Below, piece by piece: positions 38,175-63,290 of a stretch of DNA of 64,000 nt (its first letter is position 1; every line of letters begins with the position of its first letter). The DNA is from a virus (lineage: Duplodnaviria; Caudoviricetes). The position numbers were made by a program, and so were the translations under genes. The notes under the pieces were generated by a model that had not been told where the DNA came from, did no database searches, and was given only the letters and a program-made list of their open reading frames with translations. The stretch spans positions 96,001-160,000 of the IMG/VR virus record IMGVR_UViG_3300028591_005215, one strand, 5' to 3'.

Positions 38175-38432
38175 ATGAAAGTAATTAAATTAACTGAATC
38201 ACAGTTCCGTAGACTATTGGAATCTGACGATAGTGCACCTTCTTTTGATGGTGGCGATGTAACTGAATACAATTCTGGGGAAAAGGTTACAAATTCAGCT
38301 TCAGTGCATGATACTGATGGAAATATTAAATTTGGTAAAGAGCCTGACACTGACGATGTCGCAAATCAATTATCTGCGCAACAATGGTACGCTAATGGAA
38401 CAACAAATAATAATCACGCATTAAATTATTAA
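38175..38432 (+). CDS. Small protein with an LTES leader (putative head cargo)
   Basis: MKVIKLTESQFRRLLES. Confidence 0.75.
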   Translation: MKVIKLTESQFRRLLESDDSAPSFDGGDVTEYNSGEKVTNSASVHDTDGNIKFGKEPDTDDVANQLSAQQWYANGTTNNNHALNY

Positions 38433-38433
38433 T

Positions 38434-39807
38434 ATGGCTCTTTTTATAGATGAAGCAGTAGATGACAAACTTAGTAAAAAAACTACTGTTATACCAAAAA
38501 ATATACATAATCTTGTTTTAAAGGTTAAAGGTGAATACGGTAATAATACAACACAAGACGGTTACAAAACAGTTAACCGCCTTTTAGACGCTTCTTACAA
38601 TAAAGGGAAGAAAAGAAAAGATGGCATTTCAGCAAAAGATGATAATGAACCTAAGTTAGATAAAAAAGATGGGCTTGTAAAATTTCCAACGTCAGCAGCA
38701 CGTAAAATGGTAATTGATTTGAAAAAAGAAAAGAATTTCATTGACCCACAAGCAAAACAACAGATTATAAATTATTTGGCAACTGATGTCAAATCTAAAG
38801 AAAGTGCTGTAAAAAATAATAATAATGTTCCACAAGTCCCAAAGCTTGCAAAGCCACCAAAGGCTAAACAAGAAAAAACAGCAAGTTCTATTAAAGTTGG
38901 CAACGCTAATGTAAACTTACATGAAACAAAAAGGAAAAAAATTATTATACCTGAATCAAAACTTATCATATTAAAAGAACATAAAGACCAATTAAATATT
39001 CCATTTAATCATGATACGGAAAATTATGATTATAAAGAAAATTGGGAACATTATATAGATTTTCTTGAAGAGTATGGGAAATATGGGCAATTACCACATT
39101 CGCAATGTGACGTAAGTGATGTTCGGGATAAGATTGCAGACATTTTACCAAATGTTTTAGATGAATTAGTTGGAGGTGAGGAAGGAATGTATAATGAATT
39201 AAGGCAAGAAGACTTTATATACGAAATGCTTAACGATGGGTATAGCGAAGAATACGTATCAATGGAAGACTTTGATGATTTTAATCCTGAAGAAATGAGT
39301 GCAGATGAATATCTTAGAGACTTTGATACGAATGACGTGTTTAGTAGCCTAAATAGAACAGGTGAAGAAGCATATGAAGATTATGTATATGAATTTTTTA
39401 AACACAGATTAGGTGAATATGGCTTCCCTTATTCTTTAACATACAACAATAGAGGGTTAATCTATGTTGAAAGAGCTATCAGTGTTAACGGGCTAATGAA
39501 AAGGCAGAAAACTAACCCATTTATTGGTAAATATGATTCAGTAGGCGAATATTGGACTTGGGATAATGGAAATAGTGAACCTTATTGTGGCGGTCAAGGA
39601 ACAACTGTAACACTTAAAGGTTGGGTTGACCCGTCAGAAGTTGATTGGTATCATACATTATACGTAAATATGTATGACTTAAATGAAGAAAAAGAACTTT
39701 ACATACCAAATGCTAACGTAGAAATTGTTTCAGTAACAATTTACGATGGGGCAACTGGTAAAGATAAATCATTTGGCTTGCAAAAACCTATAATTATTAA
39801 AGCATAA
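38434..39807 (+). CDS. Putative head protein with a C-terminal ADP-ribosyltransferase-like domain
   Basis: Internal KKIIIPESKLIILKE; C-terminal YVERAI...GEYWTWD...VDWYHTL...EEKEL fits an R-S/T-E ART layout. Confidence 0.5.
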   Translation: MALFIDEAVDDKLSKKTTVIPKNIHNLVLKVKGEYGNNTTQDGYKTVNRLLDASYNKGKKRKDGISAKDDNEPKLDKKDGLVKFPTSAARKMVIDLKKEKNFIDPQAKQQIINYLATDVKSKESAVKNNNNVPQVPKLAKPPKAKQEKTASSIKVGNANVNLHETKRKKIIIPESKLIILKEHKDQLNIPFNHDTENYDYKENWEHYIDFLEEYGKYGQLPHSQCDVSDVRDKIADILPNVLDELVGGEEGMYNELRQEDFIYEMLNDGYSEEYVSMEDFDDFNPEEMSADEYLRDFDTNDVFSSLNRTGEEAYEDYVYEFFKHRLGEYGFPYSLTYNNRGLIYVERAISVNGLMKRQKTNPFIGKYDSVGEYWTWDNGNSEPYCGGQGTTVTLKGWVDPSEVDWYHTLYVNMYDLNEEKELYIPNANVEIVSVTIYDGATGKDKSFGLQKPIIIKA

Positions 39808-39850
39808 ACTATTTATTATTAAAATAAAATATTTAAAATTTATATAAATT

Positions 39851-40264
39851 ATGTCAACAATTAATGAAAACGGACAGACTTGTCTTGAAACAAGGGGTAT
39901 TACCGAAAGACAAAATGAAATTGTACGTTCAGATTACAATATTGAAGACCAATATAGTGCAACACATAAAGATGCTTTAAGTGATGGTGACGCACTTGGT
40001 AAAGGTACAGGACATGGTGGCCATACGGCTTGGTTACCTGACTGTTCTAAACCAACAAATATGATTGATTATTCTAATTTTGATACAAGTAATGGCGGTG
40101 GCCTTTATGATATTGAGGGCAGAAATGATATTGGTGGCCGTAAAAAAGCTATGGCTTCACAATTGTACAATGAAGAAAATCAATATAGCGCTGGTTTAAT
40201 AAGCACTGCTGAAAATGTGGCAGACGGACAATATTTCATTGGCCAAACAACAAAACATCTATAA
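39851..40264 (+). CDS. Hypothetical virion protein, Gly/Asp-rich
   Basis: Late motif upstream; HKDALSDGDALGKGTG. Confidence 0.7.
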   Translation: MSTINENGQTCLETRGITERQNEIVRSDYNIEDQYSATHKDALSDGDALGKGTGHGGHTAWLPDCSKPTNMIDYSNFDTSNGGGLYDIEGRNDIGGRKKAMASQLYNEENQYSAGLISTAENVADGQYFIGQTTKHL

Positions 40265-40279
40265 TTTAAAGTATAAAGC

Positions 40280-41056
40280 ATGAGTTTGAACCTATACGAC
40301 ATACTTAACAATGTATTAAACGAATCAGTCAATCAAAATAGTGTAATAAATGCGATTGATTCAAAAAATCGTGTCTTTATAGATTATAGTGATGAAGATA
40401 ATAATGCCCCAGGTAGAAGGTTAATAGAACCTTATGCCTTGGGTGTTACTAAAGCAGGAAATTTAGCATTAAGAGCTTTCCAATATCAAGGAGCTACTTT
40501 ACGTGGTGTGCCTAAATGGAAACTATTTAGACTTGATAGAATTAATAAATGGACTCCTCTTAAATCACATTTTAACTTGCCACCTAATGAACAAGGATTT
40601 GATTCGCCTGCTTATAATGAACGTGGGGATAATACGTTAGTAAGTGTGATTAAGCAAGTAAGCTTTGGTAAGAATGATTATTTATACCAACCTTCACTTG
40701 ACAAAGAAAGAAAAAGAACTGACATGGTTAAAAACCATGCAAATGCAATGGACTTAAGTAATTTGGAAGCAATGCCTAAAGGTCCAATTGTGCAAAAGAA
40801 AAACAATATTTTTACTTCAAGGCCTAATAGTAAAAAATATGCCGAATATAGAAAAAATGTTATGAACACACAAAGGGATGCAACAGAAACTGAAAAGTAT
40901 TGGGGTGACTATGATAAGGCAGAACAAGAAAGAATAAATCAGCAGATTCAAAATAAAGAGGATGATGAAATGAATAATTATCGTGGTCCTGTGAAAGATT
41001 TTGATGATGATGAAAATGATTACGAAAATTTTATAAAAAATGGCAGCGGCAGATAA
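40280..41056 (+). CDS. WYL-domain protein
   Basis: IDY...RRLIEPYALG...LRAFQ...WKLFRLDRI; N-terminal ILNNVLNES. Confidence 0.8.
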   Translation: MSLNLYDILNNVLNESVNQNSVINAIDSKNRVFIDYSDEDNNAPGRRLIEPYALGVTKAGNLALRAFQYQGATLRGVPKWKLFRLDRINKWTPLKSHFNLPPNEQGFDSPAYNERGDNTLVSVIKQVSFGKNDYLYQPSLDKERKRTDMVKNHANAMDLSNLEAMPKGPIVQKKNNIFTSRPNSKKYAEYRKNVMNTQRDATETEKYWGDYDKAEQERINQQIQNKEDDEMNNYRGPVKDFDDDENDYENFIKNGSGR

Positions 41057-41822
41057 TATTACAACATTAGATAATTCGGCATTTGCAAGAATAAAACAAA
41101 ATGCAAGAAATAGTAAAGCAAGAAAACTAATACACGAAGATGCTAAAAATGATGCTCATATAATTGCTGAAAGACAAAAAGAAAGAAGCAATTTTCTTAA
41201 ATCTTCAAATTCGCTTGCTAACGATGCTTTTGATTCTATGGAAGACAGTTATGCCACTTCAACTAATAAAATGCAGCAGGGGCAAATTAACGAAGAAATA
41301 GGGGCAGCTGGATTACAGTATGACCAAATGCTTCAACAAAGAATGGCCAAATTACAGCAAAGTATGAATAATCAAGTTCAGAATACAATGAACAGTGGCC
41401 TTGGGCTTATACAGCAAAATAGAATTGTTGAAGATGCACCTAAAGCAAGTAATTTTCTTCCGAAAGAAATTCTTGAACAGTTTAAAAGTAATCCTATTGA
41501 CACTGAAGTATTAAGTCCAAATAAACCTGTTCTTGATACAATTGGTGCTACAAATGGCTATGTGAATGAACGCCAAATGACTCAAGAGACAACTACCAAT
41601 AATGGAATTGACTATAATATGATACAAAATATAGTTGAAACGGCAGTAAAAAAATATGCAAAGGCTTTGAATAAATCTTTACTAAATGAAAATAAAACTT
41701 CAAATGGTAGCAATAATTTAAAAGCAATGAAAATTGGCAATAAATTTAGTTTTATTTCGGAAAATGGTGACGTTTATGAAGCTGTTTTAAAATTTAAGGG
41801 TAATATTAATAGTAAAAAATAG
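41040..41822 (+). CDS. Hypothetical protein, probably internal head
   Basis: Low complexity with several hydrophobic-X-E sites; IQNIVETAVKKY...LLNE. Confidence 0.7.
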   Translation: MAAADNITTLDNSAFARIKQNARNSKARKLIHEDAKNDAHIIAERQKERSNFLKSSNSLANDAFDSMEDSYATSTNKMQQGQINEEIGAAGLQYDQMLQQRMAKLQQSMNNQVQNTMNSGLGLIQQNRIVEDAPKASNFLPKEILEQFKSNPIDTEVLSPNKPVLDTIGATNGYVNERQMTQETTTNNGIDYNMIQNIVETAVKKYAKALNKSLLNENKTSNGSNNLKAMKIGNKFSFISENGDVYEAVLKFKGNINSKK

Positions 41823-41887
41823 AAATTGCGTTGCATGTTATAAATTAAGATAAATTTAATTATAAATAAGGAAATTAAATGACTAAT

Positions 41888-41922
41888 AAAGGGTGAATTT
41901 CTGTGATGAAGTTCGCCCTTTT
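41888..41922 (+). terminator. Intrinsic terminator
   Basis: AAAGGGTGAATTTC...GAAGTTCGCCCTTTT. Confidence 0.75.
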
Positions 41923-41972
41923 ATCGTTTTATTTACTATTTATTAACAAATAAGCTAAATAAAATAATTAAA

Positions 41973-44015
41973 ATGAAAGGACTTTACTTTTACAAGTTAA
42001 TGTCTCCATATCCAGAAGATGTAACGAAGAATTGTAGATTGACAGTTAATGAAATCGACAGTAACTTCTTAAATCTAAAAGATGAGGATATCCAAAGCGC
42101 TGAATTCGATTGTGAAGCAAATGTCATTACCCTCACAAGAAACAACGGCGAGAAGCTGCAAGCCGATTTGTCTTGTGCTATGTCAGGGGTGACAAAGAAT
42201 TTTGATGTAACTTTCGAAGAAGAAGGCGATTGCACTGGAACAGGTGTACTGAAATTCAGCTGGGATGAAGACGGAAATACCTATGAATCTAAAATTGAAG
42301 GTATTGTAACAAAAGATAACGTTGGCAACTATGTTATGACCGAAGCTATAACTGATGGAACTATCATAGGTAACGGCAGAGATGGTAGTCCATTAGGTTT
42401 AAATCCTGTTGAACAAACTGGACATTATAAACCAGTGATAGATTTATTCGATGTAACTGAAGGTGGTGAATTACCTGAAAAAGATAAAGTTAATATTGGT
42501 GATAGATATTTAACATTAGAAAAAGTTGATGATTACGGCTATCTTTATAATAGAAAAGGTGTTGATGAAATAATTGAAAAATTAAATAATGGATGGCGAG
42601 TTCCTACTAAAGAAGATTGGGATAATCTTTTAAATGCTATTGAACCTTGCGCTTATAGAAATCACAATTCAAGTGATTGCCATATAGAATTGGGTAAATT
42701 GGCTGGTAAAGAATTAAAAACAAAGGAAGAATGGCCTTTTGATAATGCTACAAGTGCTATTACTGATGACACAGCATATTTGTTTGATGAAATAGTTCCT
42801 GCTAATAAGCCTATTAATTCTAAAGGCACTAATAAATATAATTTCTCAGTTTTACCAAGCGGTTATGCTTACGAAAAAAATGATGAAATTAAAAAGTTTG
42901 GTGAAGTAGCAAAATATTGGACTAATTCACAGACAATGCCAACTGCACAAAGTGATTATTATACAAAGGCATTTATGTATAATTTATCTGGTGTATGGCA
43001 AGAAGCTGATTGCCCTTATAATTTTTATTCGGTAAGACTTATTAAGGATTATACAGGTAGTAATGCAAGAGAAACTGCTTACATAGGAGGTAGGCATTAT
43101 GAAGAAATATTAATGCCTGCATTGAATTCTGAACACGGTTTTGCATTGTGGACAAAAACAAATGTTGACATAGAAGTATCAGAAGACAATATGATTAAGT
43201 ATTCTGATGCATATCAAACAAAGTCGCATAAAGTTTATGTTATAAATGAATGGACTGGTAAAGAATGGGAAAGAAAAATTTTACCAGAAGGCGGAGTTGT
43301 AGTAATTAATAAACAGCAAGATTGTGACCATGAAATTGATACTGAATATCGCTTAGTTGATGGAAAATTAGTTGCCACTGATGATATTGTATATATGCGA
43401 GCTCTTTTAAAGCTTACCCCATTGATTAACGAGTTAATTGGCAATGTTGATGGTGAAAAAGAAGAACGTGAAGAATCTGATAGGGTATTAAGTGGCGCTA
43501 TTACAACCGAAATCGAACGTGCTAAAGCGGAAGAAGCAAGGATTGAAGAAGAGTTACAGGACGCTATTTTAGATGAATCAATTAAACGTGAAGAAGAGGA
43601 TGAAAAGATTGAAAGCAAAATAACTGCTGAAAGCAATACAAGGAAAGAAGCAGATGACGCTTTGGGTGAATCTTTAAATGTTGAAATTGAACGTGCTAAA
43701 GCAGAAGAAGTAAGGCTTAACGAACTTATTGAAGTGCTAAGTGGTTCAATTGAAACTGAGTCAGAAAGTGCTTCTACTATTGAAGCAGCGTTAAGTGGAG
43801 CTATTACAACCGAAATCGAACGTGCTAAAGCGGAAGAAGCAAGGATTGAGGGGTTAGTACCTGTAGGCGCTGAATATGAAATTAAGGCTAATTTGGATGG
43901 ATTTGAAGACATCAAAGAAAACAGAACAGCCAGTAAAATAGAAATACCTTCATTTAGTGGTACTAACAATACTGTTATTGTTATTGACTATGATTTTGGT
44001 GAAATTACAAAATAA
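41973..44015 (+). CDS. Fibre protein with a Fibrobacter succinogenes major paralogous (FISUMP) domain and coiled-coil repeats
   Basis: LTVNEIDSNF N-terminus; YGYLYN...GWRVPTKEDWDNL...GTNKYNFSVLPSG...YWT...SVRLIKD; EIERAKAEE repeats. Confidence 0.75.
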   Translation: MKGLYFYKLMSPYPEDVTKNCRLTVNEIDSNFLNLKDEDIQSAEFDCEANVITLTRNNGEKLQADLSCAMSGVTKNFDVTFEEEGDCTGTGVLKFSWDEDGNTYESKIEGIVTKDNVGNYVMTEAITDGTIIGNGRDGSPLGLNPVEQTGHYKPVIDLFDVTEGGELPEKDKVNIGDRYLTLEKVDDYGYLYNRKGVDEIIEKLNNGWRVPTKEDWDNLLNAIEPCAYRNHNSSDCHIELGKLAGKELKTKEEWPFDNATSAITDDTAYLFDEIVPANKPINSKGTNKYNFSVLPSGYAYEKNDEIKKFGEVAKYWTNSQTMPTAQSDYYTKAFMYNLSGVWQEADCPYNFYSVRLIKDYTGSNARETAYIGGRHYEEILMPALNSEHGFALWTKTNVDIEVSEDNMIKYSDAYQTKSHKVYVINEWTGKEWERKILPEGGVVVINKQQDCDHEIDTEYRLVDGKLVATDDIVYMRALLKLTPLINELIGNVDGEKEEREESDRVLSGAITTEIERAKAEEARIEEELQDAILDESIKREEEDEKIESKITAESNTRKEADDALGESLNVEIERAKAEEVRLNELIEVLSGSIETESESASTIEAALSGAITTEIERAKAEEARIEGLVPVGAEYEIKANLDGFEDIKENRTASKIEIPSFSGTNNTVIVIDYDFGEITK

Positions 44016-51302: not shown

Positions 51303-52232
51303 ATGTTTAAGAAAATGATTGATTTTAACCAAGCAATAAGCATCATAAGAAGAAATGGTGGCTTCAAGTCAAATAGAAAAGATACATCATATTACAGAAC
51401 GTATACTATAGAAGGTAATAGACCATTACAAGCACGTGTTTCAAATCACGGAACATGGTTATGGACTTGGTATGACAAAGATTATGACCCATCATATGCT
51501 ATTAATTTCTGTGTTGTGTTTTCTGAAAATGGTGAATATGATTCTGACGTATCTGTTGATATGGACATAAAGGATGAAGAAGGAAATGTAATTGGACGGA
51601 AGAAATCATTTGAAGTTATTCAGTATGTCTATAACTGCCAAATACTTGATGATAATGATGCAGCGCTAATAAATCAAGCAGTTCAGAATATATGGCAAAA
51701 CAAAGGGTTTAAAGACCCATTGGCAAACACCCCAAAGCACGCAAAAGTAATAATATTAAGACCAAACGAAACACCAGAGATAATAACAGAAGCAAAACAT
51801 ACAAATATGAATAAGAAATTAATTAGATTAACAGGCCTTGATTGGAGAACATATGCAAATGCAGCAAAGAAGAGGGACGCACAGATACAGCAATTAGGCC
51901 GTGATGCAACTGATAAAGGTGGTAATCGTTTAACACATTTAAGAAATAACTTGGATTATGCTGCATCTGATGCTTTAACGTCTAAATATGCACAAAGGCA
52001 TAACAATGGCTATCCAACCAATAATGCTGATGTCTACACTAAAAACGGTTATCAGACTGTTACAACCAACAATTTTGATGGTAATGGAAGGTGGTCAAGA
52101 GGCGAATTCAATTATGATAACAAAGGTAATATAGATAAACAAGGTTACAATATGAATTCGCAAATGGACAACGAGGTAGAAGACTATATGAAAGGTAAAT
52201 CAAAATACATTAAAGGTAAAGGTTGGCAATAA
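51303..52232 (+). CDS. Two-part hypothetical protein, putative head cargo
   Basis: N-terminal SYY...RVSNH domain joined via IITEAKHTN to MNKKLIRLTGLDWRTY. Start at 51303 or 51315. Confidence 0.65.
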   Translation: MFKKMIDFNQAISIIRRNGGFKSNRKDTSYYRTYTIEGNRPLQARVSNHGTWLWTWYDKDYDPSYAINFCVVFSENGEYDSDVSVDMDIKDEEGNVIGRKKSFEVIQYVYNCQILDDNDAALINQAVQNIWQNKGFKDPLANTPKHAKVIILRPNETPEIITEAKHTNMNKKLIRLTGLDWRTYANAAKKRDAQIQQLGRDATDKGGNRLTHLRNNLDYAASDALTSKYAQRHNNGYPTNNADVYTKNGYQTVTTNNFDGNGRWSRGEFNYDNKGNIDKQGYNMNSQMDNEVEDYMKGKSKYIKGKGWQ

Positions 52233-52304: not shown

Positions 52305-53858
52305 TTAGTATACAAAAAATTCTGATTTAATATCATCAAACACGAATCCTCCTGTTGAAGGCTTTTTATCTGGTAGCTTTTTAAAATAGAAATGCATATC
52401 AGAATTCATTGTTACAATAGAATTCAATGACGATGGAATTACTCCTTCTGTTTCAAATTCTCTAATTTCTGCTTCAGACAAATTATTCAAAGCATTTAGA
52501 TATTTTTCGTTTTCAATTTGATAAGTTTCGTCAGTTTCTTGCTTTAACTCTTCTTGATAATCAGAAACAAGTTTGTCCCAATCTTGACCAATTTCTTTAA
52601 TAAATGGTGGTACTTGCTTAATTTTAACCCAATATTCTATTTCTTTACGTTCTGGAGTCATTAACGCTTCATATGAATCTTGGTCTTCTACCTTATTAGG
52701 CTGTCCTGATACAAGCTGCGCTTGTTCTTCTGTGAAATATTTTCTATCTTTAGGATTTGTTATAAGAATATCTTCACGAATATCAGTTGAGAAACAAACC
52801 AATAACGGTGTAATACGCTTGTTAAATTGGTCAATATATTTTTCAACGTTATATTCTATTGAGCCAAACCCTAATTCTTCTGATTCAGAACAAAGTACAT
52901 CATCTTCAGAATCTACAATTTCCTTTGGTACTAATTGACAATTAAGAACAATTTCATCTTCTTCACGAATGATATACTTTTTCAACATTTCTTTTTTATC
53001 TTTAGTTTTAAGATTTTTATAAAGAATGTTTTTCTTCTCACATTCTGGTGCCAAAAGTTCACGTGTAATTTTAGCATTAAGTTCTTCTTCTTTACCGTTA
53101 AACATAACATATTGATGCGTTATTCGTTTAACGTCTGAATCAGATTTCTTTTCACCAGTGTTTATATAGAAAATTGTATCACTTACATTTACTTTAACAT
53201 CATTCTTAATAACAAGTTCGTACCAAGCCTGTCTTGACTTTTTAGTTCCTGCTTTTGTTAACGTCTTAGTGTCTGCTATATAATCATTGATAGTTTTCTT
53301 AATATTACCTTTAGATGCTATATCCTTAATAGGTATTTGGTAATTATAAATTCTATCTATATAATCATAATATGCTTCAAGAAAATCGTGTCCTTTTGCG
53401 TGAAGTAACATATCCACACCCTTATCAATAAACTTTTCAAGGTAGCCTGACATTTTTCTTGATTTAATAGTATTACCTACTTTCTTTGTAGAACCATTTG
53501 GCATTAAGTCGGCATAGTTCTTTCTTGCGAAGTTGATGGTAGCATCACAGAACTCGTCTATTCCTAATCCCATTTTGTTCACGCCACCGTTATATGGTTT
53601 GCTAAGGTACAAATCCTCAAACTCAGCCACATCAGCTTCAACACCAGTATACTTTTTACCTTTTACACTGTTTCTACCAGCACCTGTACTGATATAAGGG
53701 TTAGTTTCTGTATACCTAAATTCATCATCTTTAGGCATTTGGAAGTTAAAACCATCTGTGTTTGAAATTACGTTCAAACCCAAAGCATTAATTACAGTAC
53801 CATCTAAACTTATGTCAAAGACATAGTCATTTATTTTACCAATATTAATTTTCTCCAT
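52305..53858 (-). CDS. polB: DNA polymerase family B, C-terminal fragment, preceded by a 33-aa C-intein
   Basis: MEKINIGKINDYVFDISLDGTVINALGLNVISN then TDGFNF (second half of motif C) and RKNYA. Likely start 53858. Confidence 0.9.
   Translation of the reverse strand: MEKINIGKINDYVFDISLDGTVINALGLNVISNTDGFNFQMPKDDEFRYTETNPYISTGAGRNSVKGKKYTGVEADVAEFEDLYLSKPYNGGVNKMGLGIDEFCDATINFARKNYADLMPNGSTKKVGNTIKSRKMSGYLEKFIDKGVDMLLHAKGHDFLEAYYDYIDRIYNYQIPIKDIASKGNIKKTINDYIADTKTLTKAGTKKSRQAWYELVIKNDVKVNVSDTIFYINTGEKKSDSDVKRITHQYVMFNGKEEELNAKITRELLAPECEKKNILYKNLKTKDKKEMLKKYIIREEDEIVLNCQLVPKEIVDSEDDVLCSESEELGFGSIEYNVEKYIDQFNKRITPLLVCFSTDIREDILITNPKDRKYFTEEQAQLVSGQPNKVEDQDSYEALMTPERKEIEYWVKIKQVPPFIKEIGQDWDKLVSDYQEELKQETDETYQIENEKYLNALNNLSEAEIREFETEGVIPSSLNSIVTMNSDMHFYFKKLPDKKPSTGGFVFDDIKSEFFVY
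53760..53858 (-). mobile_element. Split intein, C-terminal half (IntC)
   Basis: Block F DYVFDIS; block G ending ISN, followed by the +1 Thr. Confidence 0.88.
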
Positions 53859-55137
53859 TTTTCCAAACGTATTTAAAAAGTCCACAATCCCATATTTTTT
53901 TAGCGCCAATTTTTTTAACCATTTCGGTTTCTGTCATGGTTAGTGGAAGGTTGTATTTTTTATTTAATATTACTTTTCTAAACCCAAATTTATGGAATCT
54001 AATACAAGTCCCATTTATAAAATATCTGTAATTCGGCCTTAATGTGGATTCATGCTTAAACCCAAGTTTGCTATATAAATTGTTTGTAGAATTTAATGTC
54101 CATCTTCTGTCAGCAAAAGATTTGATTTCATTAGGGGTATATTTTTCTGTGAAATATTTGAATAGTTTTCCACCAACACCTATTGAACGTTTATTTATGT
54201 CTGTCGCAAATCTGACTAATTCCCATTTACCTGGACCGTTCCTATTAAACAACATAACACCACAAAGTTCATTTTTATTAAATGCTCCTATGTACACAGT
54301 TGCCTTACATCTTCCCTGTATGTGATTTTTATCCAAAAAATCAGAGGAATCAGTGAAATTTATTTCGTGTATTGAACATTTCCTTCCATATATTTTCTCT
54401 AAGTCATAATCTTTACCAATTATGTGTTTTATTTTGCTTAATACTATTTCTTTGTGATTCATATATTCATCTTCGAAAATCTGTATTAATCTTACGCCTT
54501 TGCTTTCGCACATTTCAGTTTTCATAAGATGATAATTTTTTGGCTTTTCGCTGTGCCAGTATAATCCATTAAATTCAATAGCCAATTTCATAGAAGGTAT
54601 GTAAATATCAAGTTCGAACCCATCAAGCAATGTCCTGTCACCAAATGATATCTCACGGTCATTTCCGATAAGGTTTTTTATAAATTCCCCTATTTCTTCT
54701 TCTGGTTTTGATTTGGAAGAATAACAATGTCTGCACCCACCATTTGGTGATGTTATGTGGTCACATGCAATTTTTGTGAATTCATTTCCACACTTTTTAC
54801 ATTTTATTGTTATTTTTGAATGACTGTTTTCATATTCATTCTCTATGTTTGGAAATTCATATGTATTACCAAAACGCTTTTCTGACTCCTTTATAAAACT
54901 TTCATAATTGTTCTTGTGATACTCAACTGCATATTTTTTACCGCATGATGGGCATCCTTGACCATTCATATGATTTTTAGGCGTCTGCCAAAATTCTCCA
55001 TGAATGGGACATATTATCTTAACTTTAGTTCTTTGATTTTTATATTCAGACTGAGAATATATGTATTTGCCACCATGAACTAAATTAGACCTTTCTTCAA
55101 ATATTTTCTGATTTAATCTATACACATTTCGTTTCAT
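53845..55137 (-). CDS. Free-standing putative homing endonuclease between the split-intein halves
   Basis: IICPIHGEFWQTPKNHMNGQGCPSCG; ELDIYIPSMKLAIEFNGLYWHS; GNAT-like C-terminus. Overlaps the IntC start by 14 nt. Confidence 0.85.
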   Translation of the reverse strand: MKRNVYRLNQKIFEERSNLVHGGKYIYSQSEYKNQRTKVKIICPIHGEFWQTPKNHMNGQGCPSCGKKYAVEYHKNNYESFIKESEKRFGNTYEFPNIENEYENSHSKITIKCKKCGNEFTKIACDHITSPNGGCRHCYSSKSKPEEEIGEFIKNLIGNDREISFGDRTLLDGFELDIYIPSMKLAIEFNGLYWHSEKPKNYHLMKTEMCESKGVRLIQIFEDEYMNHKEIVLSKIKHIIGKDYDLEKIYGRKCSIHEINFTDSSDFLDKNHIQGRCKATVYIGAFNKNELCGVMLFNRNGPGKWELVRFATDINKRSIGVGGKLFKYFTEKYTPNEIKSFADRRWTLNSTNNLYSKLGFKHESTLRPNYRYFINGTCIRFHKFGFRKVILNKKYNLPLTMTETEMVKKIGAKKIWDCGLFKYVWKNGEN

Positions 55138-55195
55138 GTAGTTTTTAGTTCGATTTTCAGGTTATTTAAAAAAAAGAAAAGAGAAATTATTTCAT

Positions 55196-55756
55196 TTAGT
55201 GCGTTTTTCTTTTTAAGAACAATATTCCAGCTTGGCAAGTTTTGCTAAATGTATCTAACGGCATTTCTCCCCATTCGTTTAAAAAGGCTTTTACTATGTT
55301 TAGATTGTTAGTATTTAATAATGCGATTGGCACTCTATCAATAGTACCATCTTTTATCATTTTTACCATCATTTTAGCCTTTTTTTCGGTTAGCCACTTA
55401 AAATTACCATTAGTTTCTATTGGTTTTGTATAATATTCAAATTTAGTGTCATCATTAACATCACTTGGCTTAATTTTTTGTTGGTTAGCGTTAAACAAAC
55501 TATGGTCTTCTGTCACTGTAACACTCATATTACCTTCAGAAACGGTGTATAATGGCTTATTTGTCTTATGACGGTATATGTAGCTAGGTCGAGCCCATCC
55601 GCTTCTACAAAGTACTTTATATGGCTTTTTAGAATAATCATATTCTCTTCCTAAAGCATCTGTTTCTGTTTTGCCTATCAACTCTTCAATTGGCTTAATA
55701 TCAATCATTCCATCACTATCATATTTAATAAATAATGGTGTATCACCAGTGAATGA
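55196..55756 (-). mobile_element. Split intein, N-terminal half (IntN, 186 aa)
   Basis: Block A SFTGDTPLFIK...IKPIEEL; block B VTVTEDHSLF; tail resembling a LAGLIDADG remnant. Confidence 0.9.
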
Positions 55757-57640
55757 ATCACCTACAATAGGGACATAGCCAAGATTGGAGAAATGTGAAA
55801 TCATTAGTCGAAGTGACATACGACCAATACATGTAGTCATTTCAGCAGCATCAATATCACCAAATGGGAATACCATAGGACACCCATAAGACCCAAAGAA
55901 TGAATTTCCTAAAATCTTTAATGGAAGCTGTTTCTTATCATTACCCATCTTTTCAGCTTTCCAATATTGTTGCTTTTCCTTTAATTCTTTAATTTGCTCT
56001 GGCGTTAAGCTATCACCTTTTTCCTTGATGTACTTACCAATTTTTTTAGCTTTTTCACCTGCATCCCCTTTTAATTCCTTATATTTTTCACGTTGCGTCA
56101 GAATATATTCAAGCAGATGGAGCATAATATGTGTTACGTCAAGAGGTGTTCTAACATTCCAAGTAAGAATAATTGAAGGGTAAAGTGAATTGTAGTCAAG
56201 CTTTACAATTCGGCTAACATACCCTGTTTTTAAAAGGCGAGACAGTCCACCTGTAAAACGTTTGTTATTACCTGTTGATGGTACTGCCAATCCGTTTTCG
56301 TAGCACCAAGCTAACATAATAAGTTTCCAAATACCTGCTGTTCCCATCGTACAAGCACGTGTGAATGTAGTTGGTAACATCTTAGCAACAAGGAAATTTG
56401 ATTCGTTTAACTTTAGTTCTACTTTTTCGGCTTCCCAAATATCATCCAACAAATATCTTTCAACTATGTACCGTCCACTTTTAGCCACATAGTTTTTAGT
56501 TAAAGGGTGTTTTTGTGTTATTTCATACCAATCACCATTTTCATCATTGAAAGCAAACTTTGGCTCAGTTATATTCCAAGTTTTTGAAATAATATTACCT
56601 GGTACATATACACGATTTGCCTTCTTTAAGTCAAGATATTTCGTGATATATTTCAAGTTTGCTGATTTCATATTAGAATCAAGTGCTTGGGCACGTCTTA
56701 CTGCGTGAAGTGAATCGAGAATGTTATGACCCCACATAATAGTAGGTCTATAGTATTCCATTTCACCACCCAATTTAAGAATTGATTCCTTAGCTTTCTT
56801 ATATATAGGATGTTTAAAATATTTAAGTGAAATTTCTTCAAATGTAGTGCCTAATATTTGTGAACGAACAATGAAAAAGTCCCAGTCAAACACTTCAGAG
56901 TTGTGGCCGAATATGACATCAGGTTTAATCTTTGCCATTATAGCAACAGTTTCTTCTATTGCTTCAAGTTCATTTTTATCACGTTCTTCATCCGTTTCAC
57001 CTGTTATAGTGATAATCTTTTCAAACCCGTGGTTTGTTCTAATACCAATCTGTTCAATTCTATGTATTTTAGGGTTCAAACCTTGGGTTTCGATATCGAA
57101 TGACATTCTAAGTAAATCATCATAGTTTTCATAACCTTTAAATAGACGTTCACCTGTTTCAATCATATGTTGCTCAACAGGTGAACAAGCCATAAATTCT
57201 TTATTAGAATCTTTCGAATCATCACCTTTCTTTTTCCTTTCATAAATAGGCGTACCTGCTTCTTGGAAGAACATCATAAAGTGCTGATAACTCATTGCCC
57301 TTGTTGATTGAAAAAGATACTTATATCCATTTTCAAGTCGGTCAGAGAATTCACTACCTTCATCACCTGTTTTTAATGCTTTAATCGTTATACCATATTC
57401 ACGTAATTTCTTGCGTAATGTACCACGATTACCTTCAAACATACGAATAGCAGCACTATGTTTGACCCAAACGAAAGGTTTAAATGGTTCAAGCTTTACC
57501 CTTTTTTGCCCTTCTTCATTAACATAAATAACACTTACCTTTTCATCATCATAACTACATTCCATAGTGATGATATGTTCCATAGGGTTATACCCCATAA
57601 GGAAAGTGTTAACAACATCAGTTGTAATTTCTTTAATCAT
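55196..57640 (-). CDS. polB: DNA polymerase family B, N-terminal fragment (exonuclease and palm) fused to an N-intein
   Basis: FDIET (ExoI), GHNSEVFDW (ExoII), YLLDD (ExoIII), LDYNSLYPS (A), KILGNSFFG (B), YVPIVGD then intein. Confidence 0.93.
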   Translation of the reverse strand: MIKEITTDVVNTFLMGYNPMEHIITMECSYDDEKVSVIYVNEEGQKRVKLEPFKPFVWVKHSAAIRMFEGNRGTLRKKLREYGITIKALKTGDEGSEFSDRLENGYKYLFQSTRAMSYQHFMMFFQEAGTPIYERKKKGDDSKDSNKEFMACSPVEQHMIETGERLFKGYENYDDLLRMSFDIETQGLNPKIHRIEQIGIRTNHGFEKIITITGETDEERDKNELEAIEETVAIMAKIKPDVIFGHNSEVFDWDFFIVRSQILGTTFEEISLKYFKHPIYKKAKESILKLGGEMEYYRPTIMWGHNILDSLHAVRRAQALDSNMKSANLKYITKYLDLKKANRVYVPGNIISKTWNITEPKFAFNDENGDWYEITQKHPLTKNYVAKSGRYIVERYLLDDIWEAEKVELKLNESNFLVAKMLPTTFTRACTMGTAGIWKLIMLAWCYENGLAVPSTGNNKRFTGGLSRLLKTGYVSRIVKLDYNSLYPSIILTWNVRTPLDVTHIMLHLLEYILTQREKYKELKGDAGEKAKKIGKYIKEKGDSLTPEQIKELKEKQQYWKAEKMGNDKKQLPLKILGNSFFGSYGCPMVFPFGDIDAAEMTTCIGRMSLRLMISHFSNLGYVPIVGDSFTGDTPLFIKYDSDGMIDIKPIEELIGKTETDALGREYDYSKKPYKVLCRSGWARPSYIYRHKTNKPLYTVSEGNMSVTVTEDHSLFNANQQKIKPSDVNDDTKFEYYTKPIETNGNFKWLTEKKAKMMVKMIKDGTIDRVPIALLNTNNLNIVKAFLNEWGEMPLDTFSKTCQAGILFLKRKTH

Positions 57641-57706
57641 AGTATTTACTTTATTTTTTTATGCTTTAAATCTGAAAGCCACATTAAGTAGCATTGATTT
57701 TTGAAA

Positions 57707-57844: not shown

Positions 57845-58078
57845 ATGGATAAAATTAAAAAAATCATAAAAGAAGAAACAAGGAAAATTCTTATGGAATA
57901 TGGAGATACGTTTAAAAATCCTAATATAGCTAATAAAATAGAAATATATGCTAATGAAATGCAGGATGACTTAAACAAAATAATAAACGATGGTGTACAC
58001 AGTAAACGTGATATTGTATTGCTTAATTGGCAGAAAGCCATAAATGGGCTTAAAGATACAGCTAAAAGAATAAGATAA
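57845..58078 (+). CDS. Small protein with a leader-like N-terminus
   Basis: MDKIKKIIKEETRKILME; late motif at 57771-57777. Confidence 0.65.
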   Translation: MDKIKKIIKEETRKILMEYGDTFKNPNIANKIEIYANEMQDDLNKIINDGVHSKRDIVLLNWQKAINGLKDTAKRIR

Positions 58079-58080
58079 AA

Positions 58081-58115
58081 AAAAAGAGGAACTAAATAAA
58101 TAGTTCCTCTTTTTT
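58081..58115. terminator. Bidirectional terminator
   Basis: AAAAAGAGGAACTA-AATAAA-TAGTTCCTCTTTTT. Confidence 0.85.
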
Positions 58116-58145
58116 AGACAATTATATAAGGTTGCGTAAAGCAGC

Positions 58146-58538
58146 TTAATACGTATCAAAATCACCGTGTTCATTACGCTCATACCAATCTTCAGGTTCG
58201 TGTTCAAACTGTGAACTTGATTGACTTTCGAGCATTTCTGATAAATAAGCCATATTGCCATTTAACTTGTTTGCCATTTCTGCAATTTCAACAAGTCTAT
58301 CTTTCTCTTCATTGGACAAAATCTTGAACTGATTAATTCTGCCATTAAGCACATCATAGAATAAAGCTTCATTTATGTCGTGCATTTTTGACATTGTTTG
58401 ATACATAAATTTAGCGAACATAGAACGATTATTGTATATATTTGGTGTGGAATCATCTTCTTTCAATATTCTGTTCACTGATTTCTCCACAATTCTGTGA
58501 AGGTCACTTTCTGTTAGTCTTATAAGTTTTTTAGTCAT
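58146..58538 (-). CDS. Small protein with a full LTESDL leader (putative head cargo)
   Basis: MTKKLIRLTESDLHRIVEKSVNRILKE; start at 58538. Confidence 0.75.
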   Translation of the reverse strand: MTKKLIRLTESDLHRIVEKSVNRILKEDDSTPNIYNNRSMFAKFMYQTMSKMHDINEALFYDVLNGRINQFKILSNEEKDRLVEIAEMANKLNGNMAYLSEMLESQSSSQFEHEPEDWYERNEHGDFDTY

Positions 58539-58652
58539 ATATATATATATTAATTTGTTATTTATTATTAAATATTTCAATATAAACAAAAATGTAGCCA
58601 TTTTTGCCTAAAAGCTTCATTTGCTTGAATCTAATTTCAATATAGCTACTTT

Positions 58653-59033: not shown

Positions 59034-59054
59034 TGTTTTTTTTATATAAATAGT

Positions 59055-59477
59055 TTACGACATTAAAATATTTTTAATTGCTAACTTGCGTTCAACTTCA
59101 TCATATGTTTCTCCAAACATAAATATTAGTCTTCCGTCTTCAGGGTAAGAATCATAACCGTCAATATTCTCGAAACACAATGAAACTACACCGTCCATAC
59201 AATCTTGCATCCCAAAGCATCCATTATTTTGAATTAAGTCAAATTGTATTTTTGTCTTTACTATATGCGTTTCAGTTTTATACTCTTCTGCCACCATTAG
59301 GCTATTAATAAGGGAACAAGGTTTATATTCAAAATCATCACCCCACACTTCATCAGGGTTGTCGGTAAAAATGAATTCATACCTATAGTTACCATCTTCT
59401 TCTTGCCCCACTAAATTTACGAAGCATAGATAAAGTTTTTTTTCTTCAGTTTCATCAAATTCCAAATCTTCATTCAT
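59055..59477 (-). CDS. Acidic hypothetical protein
   Basis: 140-aa ORF co-oriented with its neighbours. Confidence 0.7.
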   Translation of the reverse strand: MNEDLEFDETEEKKLYLCFVNLVGQEEDGNYRYEFIFTDNPDEVWGDDFEYKPCSLINSLMVAEEYKTETHIVKTKIQFDLIQNNGCFGMQDCMDGVVSLCFENIDGYDSYPEDGRLIFMFGETYDEVERKLAIKNILMS

Positions 59478-59590
59478 AACGCAGTATCATTTTTATTTAA
59501 TATTTTTTAAGCCAATTTGGCATATTTAATTAAATATACCAAATCAGCTCCTTTAATTATAAAATACTTCTAATGCTTTTTAGCAATAAT

Positions 59591-61555
59591 TTATTTTTCC
59601 TTTTCCGATACAATAATATTATTAATAACATCTTGCTTACCACGAACAATATCTAACATTCTATCAAAATACGTCCCATTAAATGATTGATAATAAATTG
59701 TGCAAGGTTTTGTTTGGCTTAAACGGTGAATTCTGTTCTCAGCTTGCAAATTATCAGCTGGAACAAAGGAAAAATTGTTAAATACAACTACATCACCTGC
59801 TGTTAAGGTAAGACCTACCGAAGCACTTTGTAAATTACCTATGAAAACTTTTACATTATTATCTTTTTGAAAACGTTCTACTGATTCGTTTTTCTTTTTT
59901 AATGATATTTTGCCATTATGATAAACCGAAATACCTTCAAATTCTTTTCTAAATGCGTTTATTTCATTATCATATGCGCAAAATATAATAACTTTATGAT
60001 TTTTTTCAATGCATTTCCTAACAAGCGAAATTGTTCTTGGAATCATTTTATCAGCAAGCCATTGTCTTAAAATGCTGCCTTCAATAAGTTTTTTGTATTT
60101 TTCGGAATTTTCAGACTTTTCTTCAGAATCTAATTGCTGCTTATAATTATCCCAAATATTATCATATGAAATTTCTTCTTCAGTTGAAAGGCTGTAGTGT
60201 AAGAATTTTACACGTTTTTCGACCATAGATTTCAAATCTTCAGTTACACGTCTTAGATAAAAAGGTTTAATTATTTCCTGTAATTCATCCATATTAGTGT
60301 CTTCACCAGGTATTACTATTTTAGGGCAAGATTTTTCAAGGCATTCATCTAATAGTCTTTTTTCATTATAAGAAAGGTCCGCCCATTCCTTTTTACCGCA
60401 TTTCTTAAGGAAAATTGATGTGTACGCCTTTCTTGGGCCTTTTTTATAGAAGACTTTAGCCCCACAATATCTTATCATATAGTTTTCCCAATTTTTTGTA
60501 ACCCTACAACCTATAATTTTAAGCAAATTATAAAGATTATGAGCACCATTTGTTATCATTGTGCCTGTAAGTTCGAAAATTCCGTCAGGATTACTACGTT
60601 TAAGTAGGTCTTTTACAATTTTAAAACGTCCTGACGATGAATTTGACAGTCTATGCGCCTCATCAATGATAAAAAGGTCAAAATTTGACTTATATAATTG
60701 GCTATTATCCATTGCATCTGAAACAATTTGCGTGTTTCTTGACACAATTTCCTTTTCTTTTACTTCAGTGAACACATTTCCATTATCATCTACGTTTAAT
60801 TCCTTCTTTTTGATTTTTTGTGTTGGTATTTTATAAAAATTTTCCAAAATATCATAATTTATGATTGTAAATTTTGCATCATCCCATTTAGAGCCGTTAA
60901 CAATAGTAATGTCTTTTTCATCAACGTAGCTTTTCAACTCATTTTTCCATGTTTCCTTAACTGAAGCAGGACAAACAACCAAAATATGTTTATAGCCACC
61001 TGCAAGTGCTGCAACAATGGCAGAAACTGTTTTGCCAAGGCCCATTTCGTCCGCTAAAATCGCCTTTTTACGTGTTACAAGGAACTTTACTGCATCTTCT
61101 TGATGAGAGTAGAGAATTCTTCCACTTCTCTTGTTATAAGGGTTGAAATCTATTTCTTTTTTAGTCCAATCTTCTAATAAAAAGTCTGTTAGAACAGCAT
61201 CTTTGGAAACAAACATCATTTGTGCTTCTACTGATTGCCTGTATTTAGCATAAAACACGTAAGTTGTTGTTGTATCACCAATATACCACCCAACAAACAG
61301 TTTTTTAGGCGTAAAATCTATATTCCATTCTTCTTTCTTTTTCTCTCCCCACCATTCTGCTACTTTAACTAATTTATTAATTAAAATTGGCTTTTTATCG
61401 TAATTTCTAAGAATAAATTCTACTTGAAAATCATTTAATTGAGATGTTTTATAAGCATACACATTATTTTTAAGATTAATAATGTAAGGATTTTCCCCAT
61501 TATAATCTTTCAAAATTCCATATGCTTGTTCTGTCTTTTTTAATGATATTGCCAT
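59591..61555 (-). CDS. SNF2-family helicase/translocase
   Basis: LADEMGLGKT, VVCPAS, IIDEAH, LTGT, LRR, VGLTLT, QAENRIHR. Confidence 0.92.
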   Translation of the reverse strand: MAISLKKTEQAYGILKDYNGENPYIINLKNNVYAYKTSQLNDFQVEFILRNYDKKPILINKLVKVAEWWGEKKKEEWNIDFTPKKLFVGWYIGDTTTTYVFYAKYRQSVEAQMMFVSKDAVLTDFLLEDWTKKEIDFNPYNKRSGRILYSHQEDAVKFLVTRKKAILADEMGLGKTVSAIVAALAGGYKHILVVCPASVKETWKNELKSYVDEKDITIVNGSKWDDAKFTIINYDILENFYKIPTQKIKKKELNVDDNGNVFTEVKEKEIVSRNTQIVSDAMDNSQLYKSNFDLFIIDEAHRLSNSSSGRFKIVKDLLKRSNPDGIFELTGTMITNGAHNLYNLLKIIGCRVTKNWENYMIRYCGAKVFYKKGPRKAYTSIFLKKCGKKEWADLSYNEKRLLDECLEKSCPKIVIPGEDTNMDELQEIIKPFYLRRVTEDLKSMVEKRVKFLHYSLSTEEEISYDNIWDNYKQQLDSEEKSENSEKYKKLIEGSILRQWLADKMIPRTISLVRKCIEKNHKVIIFCAYDNEINAFRKEFEGISVYHNGKISLKKKNESVERFQKDNNVKVFIGNLQSASVGLTLTAGDVVVFNNFSFVPADNLQAENRIHRLSQTKPCTIYYQSFNGTYFDRMLDIVRGKQDVINNIIVSEKEK

Positions 61556-61660
61556 TATATTTTATATTATATATAAAATATAACTTTTTTTCAATACAAA
61601 TCAACTATTTATTTCTTATTTGCAAATGGAAACTATTTATTTATAAAAATAAAAAAATTA

Positions 61661-62380
61661 ATGAAAGTAATAATCACTGAATCACAATATAAAAAGTTGT
61701 TTGAAGCGCAAATGGAAGGATTTCGTTTGGATGCCTTAAATACAATGCCTTATGCTAAGAAAGTCAGATATTGCAAAGAAATGCTTGGGAATCCAATAGG
61801 GAATGGCTCAAGCAGAATTGTGTTCCAAATTGATGATGAAAAATGCCTTAAATTGGCTAAGAATCAAAAAGGGGTTGCACAAAATGAAGAAGAATGCTCA
61901 ATAACACGTGACAGTTATAAGGAACAGACAGGATTATTTCCTAAAGTATACCAATTTGATGGCGACCATACCCAACTGTTCGGATATGATGGTAATGAAG
62001 AACCAAGATATCAATGGATAGTATGTGAATATGTTCTACCAGCAAAGGCTCAAGACTTTAAAAAAGTCACAGGTTTTGATTGGAAACTTGTTTGTAATTT
62101 TATAATGTACCAAGGTAGTAGATATGAACGAGGGATTGCACGATATGATAGGTCTGTTATTAATGATAATAATATTGATGAAATATTGGAAGCTGACGAA
62201 AATGGTTCATATTTCTTAAATGAATTAGAAAATTATCTCGGAAGTTATCAACCACCAACAGGTGATTATACAAGATTAGCAAATTGGGGGATGGTTCAAC
62301 GTGATGGGGAAACACATATGGTTATCCTTGATTCAGGATTAAGTGAAGAAATATATAATAATTTTTACAGAAGAAGATAA
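61661..62380 (+). CDS. Protein kinase-like protein with an ITES leader
   Basis: IGNGSSRIVF (Gly loop), CLKLA (Lys), QNEEE (helix C), GDYTRLANWG (catalytic loop), ILDSGL (DFG equivalent). Confidence 0.75.
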   Translation: MKVIITESQYKKLFEAQMEGFRLDALNTMPYAKKVRYCKEMLGNPIGNGSSRIVFQIDDEKCLKLAKNQKGVAQNEEECSITRDSYKEQTGLFPKVYQFDGDHTQLFGYDGNEEPRYQWIVCEYVLPAKAQDFKKVTGFDWKLVCNFIMYQGSRYERGIARYDRSVINDNNIDEILEADENGSYFLNELENYLGSYQPPTGDYTRLANWGMVQRDGETHMVILDSGLSEEIYNNFYRRR

Positions 62381-62381
62381 A

Positions 62382-62654
62382 ATGAAAAAACTAATTAGAC
62401 TTACAGAAGGCGATTTGCACCGTATTATTGAAAATAGCGTTAAACGTGTTTTGAAAGAATATAACCATAATAGTTGACTTGGTAAGAAATTGGATATGGC
62501 AGACATGGAAGCTAAACATGGTAATGGTAATATAGATGACAAGCATGGTAGGGCTGCAATGGCTGCTATGAGCGATGATGATGAAACATCAGATATAGCA
62601 AAAAGAGATAAAGGCTTAGGTAGAAGACCTAAATATAAAGGTGATAAAGAATAA
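62382..62654 (+). pseudogene. Leader-bearing 90-codon gene interrupted by an in-frame TGA at 62475-62477
   Basis: MKKLIRLTEGDLHRIIENSVKRVLKEYNHNS*LGKKLDMAD...KYKGDKE*; the final TAA overlaps the next ATG. Confidence 0.6.
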
Positions 62655-63187
62655 TGGATTTCAATAAAAACACACAAAGAAGAGTACCAATCAATAGAAA
62701 CAATCTCTTTTATTCTGAAGAAGATTTTGATTTTGAAATGGAAATAGGTAAAAATTATATAGAACAGGACATGAACCAAACTGTAGTTCTATATCAGGTT
62801 GACTTAACTAAATCAAATGCAGACGCTTTATATGGTGAAACTGATGCTAAACAGGTTGCCTATAAAGCGCCTGTTGAAATTCATTGCGTTTATGAAATTG
62901 AACAACCAGAACTAAAATCGTATGACAAATCAAAAAATTTAGGTACATATATGAAAACTGGTAAATTAACACTTGGTGTTTATCAAGAAACATTGGATGA
63001 ACTTGGTGTTGATATTAAGAAGGGTGACTATATTGGTGTTCAGATAAGTCAAACACATATGGAATACTTTACTGTTTCAAATGATGGCAGAAATAACTAT
63101 GATAATGCGCACACATTGTTTGGAATCGAACCTTTATTTCGTACAATTTATGCTTATCCAGTCGACCAATCGGAATTCAGTGCGTAA
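62654..63187 (+). CDS. Head completion/neck protein (gp14-like)
   Basis: VVLYQVD...DALYGE...PVEIHC...IKKGDYI...YFTV. Confidence 0.55.
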   Translation: MDFNKNTQRRVPINRNNLFYSEEDFDFEMEIGKNYIEQDMNQTVVLYQVDLTKSNADALYGETDAKQVAYKAPVEIHCVYEIEQPELKSYDKSKNLGTYMKTGKLTLGVYQETLDELGVDIKKGDYIGVQISQTHMEYFTVSNDGRNNYDNAHTLFGIEPLFRTIYAYPVDQSEFSA

Positions 63188-63290
63188 CTACATGGCATTT
63201 TTTATGGTGCTAAATTTAACCGAATCACAGTTTGCAAAGATATTTGAAAATCTTTCCAATGAAGAATAGGAAAGATATTAAGAGAAGAAA

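Follow-up and report, generated by a model that had tools for sequence, protein, structure and literature searches.

The leader peptide and the genes that carry it

The window analysed here is a stretch of 64,000 nucleotides that corresponds to bases 96,001-160,000 of one 279,749-bp viral contig (IMG/VR record IMGVR_UViG_3300028591_005215), which as a whole has a G+C content of 30.6% and an estimated completeness of ~80% (CheckV). Coordinates are those of the window unless preceded by "genome", which refers to the whole contig. Dispersed along it are genes for otherwise unrelated proteins that share a leader peptide with the consensus KKLIRLTESDLHRIV.ESV.R.L.E. The leader ranges overall from 16 to 26 residues and exists in a long form, M.KKLIRLTESDLHRI[IV]E.SV.R[IV]LKE, and in a short form of 15-16 residues, MK[VI]I.[LI]TESQ[FY]..L[LF]E, which matches the first two thirds of the long one. 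A hidden Markov model (HMM) of the leader, run on all 6,796 stop-to-stop frames of the genome, reports 11 frames with E-values of 1e-15 to 1e-4 and several weaker ones besides; at least 11 genes of this phage robustly begin with the leader, and ~14 probably do. When the first 30 residues are removed, similarity is left in only three pairs among 15 leader-associated proteins (the leader members together with window genes B, C and D), which bears out the observation, made in the sequence-only reading that preceded this analysis, that what follows the leader differs from case to case.

Gene A (38175..38432, +, 85 residues) starts with the short leader MKVIKLTESQFRRLLE (38175-38222), followed by an acidic/polar tail, and matches the leader HMM with E-values of 8e-8 using a circular seed and 1.4e-4 using an independent profile. 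Gene B (38434..39807, +, 457 residues) contains internal leader-like segments at 38932-38976, reading KKIIIPESKLIILKE, and at 39109-39162. The second of these (residues 226-243) aligns with the leader of a gene at genome 264955, and the C-terminal domain of gene B is homologous to the mature part of that same gene (BLASTP, 6e-19), the alignment beginning inside the leader. Gene C (51303..52232, +, 309 residues) comprises an N-terminal domain, referred to below as the N-domain, a truncated internal leader MNKKLIRLT (51807-51833), and a tail common to the leader gene at genome 202634. Gene E (58149..58538, -, 130 residues), whose true start reads MTKKLIRLTES..., possesses a long leader (58458-58538; HMM E-value 3e-15), and the relative P0135 represents a fused form in which an N-domain lies ahead of gene E's leader and of the part that the leader heads, hereafter its cargo. 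Gene F (61661..62380, +, 239 residues) is made up of the short leader MKVIITESQYKKLFE|A (61661-61705; the bar marks the candidate junction) and a minimal protein-kinase-like domain. Gene G (62382..62654, +) has a long leader (62382-62459) but stops after 31 codons at an in-frame TGA (62475-62477), the ancestral frame extending to 62654. Its relative P0109, 93% identical to the downstream frame, has a Ser at this place and is an intact protein of ~90 residues; gene G is probably a pseudogene. Recoding of the TGA was considered and rejected, because the large open reading frames (ORFs) are all intact under genetic code 11 and because the relative has a sense codon. Remnant H (63204..63269, +) is a 21-codon frame, MVLNLTESQFAKIFE..., the decayed start of a short-leader gene (HMM E-value 9e-5). 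Outside the window, the 141-residue leader gene 34645 (genome 34223-34645, -; L002:16223-16645) has the N-terminus MNITESDLNIIV....

The leaders listed in the sequence-only reading at 58538 (minus strand), 62382, 38175, 61661 and 63204, as well as the internal copies in the ORFs 38434-39807 and 51303-52232, are thus all present in the DNA, although those at 62382 and 63204 do not head intact genes. Three further candidates of that reading drop out. The ORF MDKIKKIIKEETRKILME (57845..58078, +) is recovered by neither HMM and has no family match, the WYL protein cited as a weaker match is likewise missed by both models, and the scaffold is discarded because hhalign returns a probability of 5% against the leader profile.

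A sharp boundary terminates the leader. The 117 distinct leaders compared, all of them from other loci, have Leu, Ile, Val or Met at position 23 and Glu at position 25 without exception, and no conservation is observed past this Glu; both positions fall outside the two peptide patterns used to retrieve these loci. The border between tag and mature protein therefore carries the protease motif [LIVM]-x-E exactly where conservation ceases, and the first ten residues, M.KKLIRLTE, likewise end in an L/I-X-E motif. The gp21 protease of phage T4 cleaves after Glu in L/I-X-E (PMC9026906). In nine long leaders, 307 of 606 same-residue codon pairs differ in codon, which argues that selection acts on the peptide and not on the DNA. 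The tag is not strictly N-terminal, as it occurs internally or in tandem in genes B and C, in the gene at genome 197243, and in many metagenomic proteins. A search of the PDB with the leader profile reports designed helical repeats only, and a ribbon-helix-helix-like DNA-binding reading of the leader (strand plus helix) was tried and set aside, no match supporting it.

Pfam and PHROGs return nothing for most tagged proteins, the weak PHROG matches being a "DNA binding protein" (E-value 0.035) and a "head maturation protease" (E-value 0.003). The model of the gene F product (predicted local distance difference test, pLDDT, 85.7) displays a small protein-kinase-like domain, for which Foldseek reports aminoglycoside phosphotransferases (APH(2'')), ULK1 and CK1 with a probability of ~1 but template-modelling (TM) scores of only 0.3-0.4. 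A glycine loop, a Lys, a D..N and a D-S-G motif are conserved, and the Atlas lead is the T7 kinase family. In an alignment of 40 family members, E7, E15 and A16 are nearly invariant, placing [LI]-x-E|A before the kinase core, and this junction is retained where the kinase is fused behind another domain. One such relative, P0198, joins an ART-PolyVal domain (3.7e-19) to a gene F-type kinase. Atlas leads for leader gene 34645 point to ART-PolyVal, RES and PARP folds (feature score 0.91, TM ~0.55) and are leads only; its product may be an Alt-like packaged ADP-ribosyltransferase. An inorganic pyrophosphatase (InPase) domain is found in 4 of 120 tagged metagenomic proteins, most tagged proteins having a single domain or no known domain. 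ART-PolyVal, mini-kinases and InPase are domain types of the polyvalent proteins of phages, which are thought to be packaged in the capsid and delivered together with the DNA, and truncated kinases occur as stand-alone proteins in Bacteroidetes phages (Iyer et al. 2017, PMC5512222).

The head module and the genomic context of the leader

The left end of the window belongs to a T4-type head module. Positions 1..392 (-) encode the N-terminal 130 residues of a gp21-like prohead protease of 237 residues, whose whole gene (genome 95679-96392, -) extends upstream of the window. The sequence-only reading had placed the protease at 1..392, and its nature is supported by Peptidase_S77 (PF03420, 5.4e-21), by phrog_207 (1.5e-41) and by 29% identity with T4 gp21. 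A scaffold-like protein of 526 residues (671..2251, +), conserved in 6 relatives, sits between the protease and the major capsid protein (MCP), and displays a conserved N-terminal helix ending in [IL]L-x-E, followed by an acidic tract. The gp23-like MCP (2301..4283, +, 660 residues) was identified by tblastn and by alignments with T4 gp23/gp24 and relatives. Its best cultured match is Flavobacterium phage immuto (~38% identity, tblastn), T4-like cyanophages and coliphages ranking lower. The predicted maturation site of the MCP, ...HLIYE|ATASDNSGS, is kept in relatives and corresponds in position to the maturation sites of T4 gp24/gp23, and in the alignment the T4 MCP's own site reads LTE|A. 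Judged by its gp23-type MCP and S77 protease genes, the phage is T4-like, and the leader boundary, the gene F junction and the MCP site would all fit cleavage by its protease.

The head genes occur in the order TerL, portal, protein X, a conserved protein of 142-144 residues, one to four leader genes, protease, scaffold and MCP. Leader genes lie between portal and protease in this genome and in five of six relatives; in the sixth, G003, short-form-like peptides begin genes at the corresponding place. This slot is that of gp67/gp68, beside the protease, in the T4 order gp20-67-68-21-22-23, and T4 gp67 and gp68 are small prohead-core proteins cleaved by gp21 (PMC9026906). In the product of the present genome's head-module leader gene (genome 94387-94707), the tail is strongly acidic, as it is in T4 gp67. 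Two of the dispersed genes also have relatives in or beside head modules: a full-length homologue of gene F is found between portal and protease in G003 (E-value 4e-20), and G005 has, between its terminase and portal genes, a homologue of gene E whose similarity continues past the leader.

Other features of this module deserve mention. A Dps/ferritin-like protein of 241 residues (genome 94722-95447; phrog_858, 8e-7; DUF5856 below cut-off; a 589-residue relative in another phage) is encoded between the leader gene and the protease and may be head-internal. In Flavobacterium phage vB_FspM_immuto_3-5A, gene 198 (L143:7312-7533) encodes 74 residues between portal and S77 protease, and its N-terminus, MKKSQIVKAVQEVLEE, has a helix of leader-like flavour with L-E-E at its end, a hint that T4-like phages of Bacteroidota have long had proteins with helices of this kind at the gp67 slot. 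The portal frame (genome 88469-91849) covers 1,126 residues as compared with 673-695 in relatives, and the large-terminase frame (genome 86029-87522) 497 as compared with 625. Endonuclease-like ORFs flank both, which look like intein or homing-endonuclease insertions comparable to the split DNA polymerase at 52305-57640.

Leader genes and structural genes also share an upstream motif. Of the 93 copies of the 9-mer ATATTTAT[AT] in the whole genome, 38 are followed at 15-65 nt by a gene start on the same strand, as compared with 11-13 of 94 in two orientation controls; the motif is orientation-specific and is shared with structural genes. Its looser core, [AC]TATTTAT, is found ahead of 6 of the 14 leader genes, A and F among them, and also ahead of the portal, protease and scaffold genes and of several tail genes. 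Gene A has a candidate late-type promoter motif, ATATTTATT (38147..38155, +), 28 nt upstream, and a promoter-like motif is located for gene F, CTATTTAT (61633..61640, +), likewise 28 nt upstream, with a second copy at 61605-61612. The T4 late-promoter box TATAAATA is not enriched in the genome.

The leader is widespread in public metagenomes, where its profile retrieves more than 5,000 proteins of 71-2,000 residues, almost none of which has a Pfam domain. Many have two or three copies, which may be N-terminal, placed between modules or close to the C-terminus, and the internal copies often keep the starting Met and conserved upstream residues. In IMG/VR, it is found on contigs of 16-412 kb. 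The S77 protease is present in all 5 leader-bearing records that are at least 90% complete and in 7 of 15 fragments, which is roughly what the completeness of the fragments leads one to expect. Complete relatives possess 7, 10, 18 and 17 long-form copies and this genome 9, whereas three Prevotella/Segatella isolates (3.4-3.6 Mb) have one leader copy each; copy number and content of the leader genes vary widely among close relatives. Across 121 loci, head genes are the commonest neighbours after the insertion sequence transposase described below (12-21 of 80 viral loci), an enrichment that may be somewhat inflated because the 80 viral loci were picked by similarity to a profile that includes the head-module member. 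Five leader copies occur on small contigs (L034, L038, L041) of the metagenome-assembled genome "Alphaproteobacteria bacterium UBA3650"; one of these contigs also has a large terminase of this phage clade, and they look like phage DNA binned with a bacterium.

An IS1595-family element with a leader-bearing passenger

A convergent transposase of 328 residues, or its C-terminal remnant, comes directly after the leader ORF in 23 of the 41 bacterial loci and in 16 of the 80 viral ones. Pfam assigns DDE_Tnp_IS1595 (PF12762, 8.6e-43) and a zinc ribbon (PF12760, 5.5e-9) to this transposase. The elements measure 2.4-2.8 kb (L019:2732-5520, from Prevotella sp. MA2016; L023:3093-5514; L039:2901-5393), are bounded at both ends by ~28-bp inverted repeats GGCAAyTATATA..., and comprise a small variable ORF, the leader-bearing passenger ORF and the convergent transposase. 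Inspection of the flanks of L019, the one element checked for a target-site duplication, found no matching 8-mer. This transposase, the terminal repeats and the extra ORFs are shared with the IS1595 family at large; the passenger differs from it in being hypervariable save for the phage leader, and in exchanging sequence with jumbo-phage genes. Between copies whose transposases are 87-93% identical in DNA, the passenger region is conserved for only ~90-110 bp around the leader, and the ~30 nt upstream of the leader ATG are likewise conserved.

A typical passenger consists of an N-domain of ~170-200 residues, then the leader, then a variable tail. The N-domain, represented for instance at 51303-51812 in the window and at L009:5273-5872, has invariant R.SNH, D, N, Y.Y and DP motifs; its model (pLDDT 78) finds no convincing match with Foldseek (E-value > 0.5), VIA-align (best Z 3.2) or a sequence profile against the PDB (E-value > 0.3). 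Gene C is of this passenger type, its N-domain being 78-84% identical to those of passengers adjoining IS1595 transposases. So is the gene at genome 197243-198142, which is followed, outside the window, by a C-terminal transposase remnant (genome 198157-198320, -). Over 699 bp, the DNA of this gene shares 95% identity with the Prevotella sp. MA2016 passenger, which indicates a recent exchange between phage and host and gives a clue to the latter. The identity ends inside the leader, as does that of gene C to its relatives, and the leader is therefore a recombination junction. Most simply, one IS1595 element would have captured a tagged phage gene, and its passenger region would since have been shuffled by recombination with phage genes at the tag. 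The host is most likely a rumen Prevotella, as suggested by these 699 bp and by the motif-bearing bacterial assemblies, nearly all of which are Prevotellaceae or other Bacteroidales.

A candidate capsid-targeting system

Signals of this kind are known from T4, in which the internal proteins IPI-III carry a capsid-targeting sequence (CTS) and gp21 removes propeptides from Alt, gp67 and gp68 (Mullaney and Black 1996; PMC9026906, PMC3012670). The diverse internal proteins of T4-even phages have only the CTS in common (PMC3012670, PMC9026906). The present system resembles it in having a head module of the T4 type that includes an S77 protease, a short tag ending in L/I-x-E at the N-terminus of otherwise unrelated proteins, tagged genes both in the gp67/68 slot and dispersed, and cargo sets that differ among relatives. 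It departs from it in the number of tagged genes (~14 as compared with ~3-5 in T4), and in that the leader also serves as an internal or tandem linker and is carried by IS1595 into host chromosomes. For the leader, the analysis establishes the tag, its boundary, its genomic distribution, the synteny, the protease gene and the domain types, and from these we infer targeting, cleavage, expression timing and injection. Some tagged proteins may be akin to the polyvalent proteins, which include ART-PolyVal, inorganic pyrophosphatase and, in Bacteroidetes phages, mini-kinases truncated at the C-terminus, which vary in a cassette-like manner, and whose polypeptides of several modules are presumably packaged and delivered along with the DNA (PMC5512222). 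Here, in contrast, the modules are mostly separate small genes, each with its own tag, or are joined by the repeated leader with the motif of the head protease, and no MuF-type anchor or autoprotease is seen. In phiKZ-like giant phages, the propeptides of inner-body and ejection proteins are cut after Glu by a gp21-related protease (PMC9026906). There, many head-internal proteins are processed after Glu, as would be the case in the tagged set, and redundant sites exist within one propeptide, but there is not one shared portable sequence, and the phage lineage is a different one. New here are the sequence and length of the tag, the scale, its use as a linker between modules, the coupling to polyvalent-protein domain types, and the carriage into host chromosomes by an insertion sequence.

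We consider it fairly probable that the leader is a lineage-specific counterpart of the T4 CTS and propeptide; that the cargo is also injected and acts on the host has an about even chance, or slightly less. Several lines of evidence, all of them circumstantial, make this capsid-cargo explanation the best one. The phage is T4-like, with a gp23-type MCP and an S77 protease, the tag border ends in the protease motif, the kinase junction keeps [LI]-x-E|A in fusions, and the conserved ...LIYE|A of the MCP coincides with the T4 gp24/gp23 maturation place. Leader genes occupy the gp67/gp68 slot and have head genes as neighbours, and relatives of the dispersed genes F and E reside in or beside head modules elsewhere. 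The peptide is under selection, the promoter-like motif links leader and structural genes, the cargo types match those of capsid-delivered polyvalent proteins (PMC5512222), and phages carry 7-18 copies as compared with one in 3.5-Mb Prevotella isolates. In the proposed mechanism, the strand and amphipathic helix of the leader (M.KKLIRLTE-SDLHRIV.ESV.R.L.E), and similarly the short form MK.I..TESQ...L.E, would guide the protein to the scaffolding core while the prohead assembles. Next, cleavage by the gp21-type S77 protease would take place after Glu in [L/I/V]-x-E, for which residue 10 (LTE|S), residue 26-27 (the last Glu, which is invariant) and, in this genome, residue 18 (I-[VI]-E) are candidate sites. 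The cut would free the cargo inside the head, from which it would probably exit with the DNA at infection. Being cleavable, the tag could also link modules in a polyprotein-like cargo, and the ~80-110 bp of conserved leader DNA may provide a crossover point for the exchange of cargo modules, including with the IS1595 element.

A number of observations weigh against this explanation. The leader, with 16-26 residues, is up to 2.5 times longer than the 10-residue T4 CTS, and to our knowledge it has no evident sequence similarity to that decapeptide. Various residues (I, G, S, A, V, ...) occupy P1' behind the last Glu, and LTESDL is a textbook helix N-cap, so that part of its conservation may be structural only. 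Proteins often have the tag in their interior or in more than one copy, and the putative role of ATATTTAT[AT] as a late promoter is read only from the genes it precedes. Searches of 50,697 phage records by megablast and tblastn found no DNA-level relative of the region, no relative of the tag and no cultured phage with the leader. Starting from the transposase, a convergent leader ORF is found in 10 of 10 loci with at least 76% identity and enough flanking sequence, more distant transposase loci (below 76% identity) being devoid of it; such a constant IS1595 passenger in Bacteroidales chromosomes, where there is no prohead, hints at a role not tied to capsids. The T4-like tag proposed in the sequence-only reading is partly supported, by the S77 protease, the [LIVM]-x-E boundary, the gp67/gp68 slot, the promoter motif (6 of 14) and the effector-like domains, but not in being strictly N-terminal. 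To describe it purely as a tag that packages phage effectors by their N-terminus is too narrow, because it is frequently internal or repeated, forms a recombination junction and is a fixed part of the IS1595 passenger.

Two rival explanations were also weighed. The leader might be the assembly helix of an expanded gp67-like family of prohead-core or scaffold-accessory proteins, degraded with the core, in which case it would not be a portable address and the attached parts would not be injected effectors. The gp67/gp68 slot is indeed its most constant location, the acidic tail of the head-module member recalls T4 gp67, and the 74-residue immuto protein at that slot has a similar helix ending in L-E-E. 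However, most copies are dispersed and associated with enzyme-like domains (kinase, ART, InPase), their number and content fluctuate between close relatives, and the tag sits between unrelated modules, all of which makes this explanation rather unlikely. Slightly less probable still is that the conserved stretch serves primarily to exchange cassettes and to start genes, combining a recombination site with a promoter or translation start, in a hypervariable gene family belonging to an IS1595 element, with a capsid-independent peptide acting, for instance, as a transposase partner or in a host-directed function. It accounts for the convergent transposases and remnants in bacterial and viral loci, for the inverted repeats enclosing the leader ORF, for the leader ORF in all ten informative close transposase loci, for the phage/MA2016 identity that ends inside the leader, and for the conserved ~30 nt upstream of the ATG. 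The codon usage nevertheless points to selection on the peptide and not on the DNA, phages with 7-18 copies rarely have a transposase, this genome retaining only a remnant, and neither the invariant terminal Glu nor the head-module synteny would be explained.

We regard as very improbable that a modifying enzyme or another dedicated partner recognises the leader, as in ribosomally synthesized and post-translationally modified peptides. Neighbour clustering over the 121 loci returns no recurrent enzyme except the transposase, and the genome's only radical S-adenosylmethionine frame is a 170-residue NrdG-like one, 12 kb from the nearest leader gene. In a further reading, a Bacteroidales IS1595 subclade could have captured the capsid-address tag of jumbo phages so that its passenger is loaded into the heads of infecting phages, a scenario to which we give a small chance. 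If it holds, the passenger would be a "Trojan" cargo encoded by the host or the insertion sequence that interferes with the phage, or an element product travelling with phage DNA. Recombination at the tag would keep swapping cargo modules between phage genomes and host chromosomes, and the tag would be a currency shared by virus, transposon and host.

If the leader is a loading and cleavage signal, sequence alone would mark the repertoire of injected proteins of abundant uncultured jumbo phages of rumen and gut Prevotella, and thousands of proteins, mostly without functional annotation, would become a list of candidate host-takeover and anti-defence factors. The link to IS1595 provides a concrete route for cargo genes between phage and host, and the tag would be a candidate tool for filling these capsids with foreign proteins. 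A single portable address that serves many cargoes, as in T4, would then be a principle both general and lineage-specific, and one that extends to polyprotein-like cargo joined by cleavable tags.

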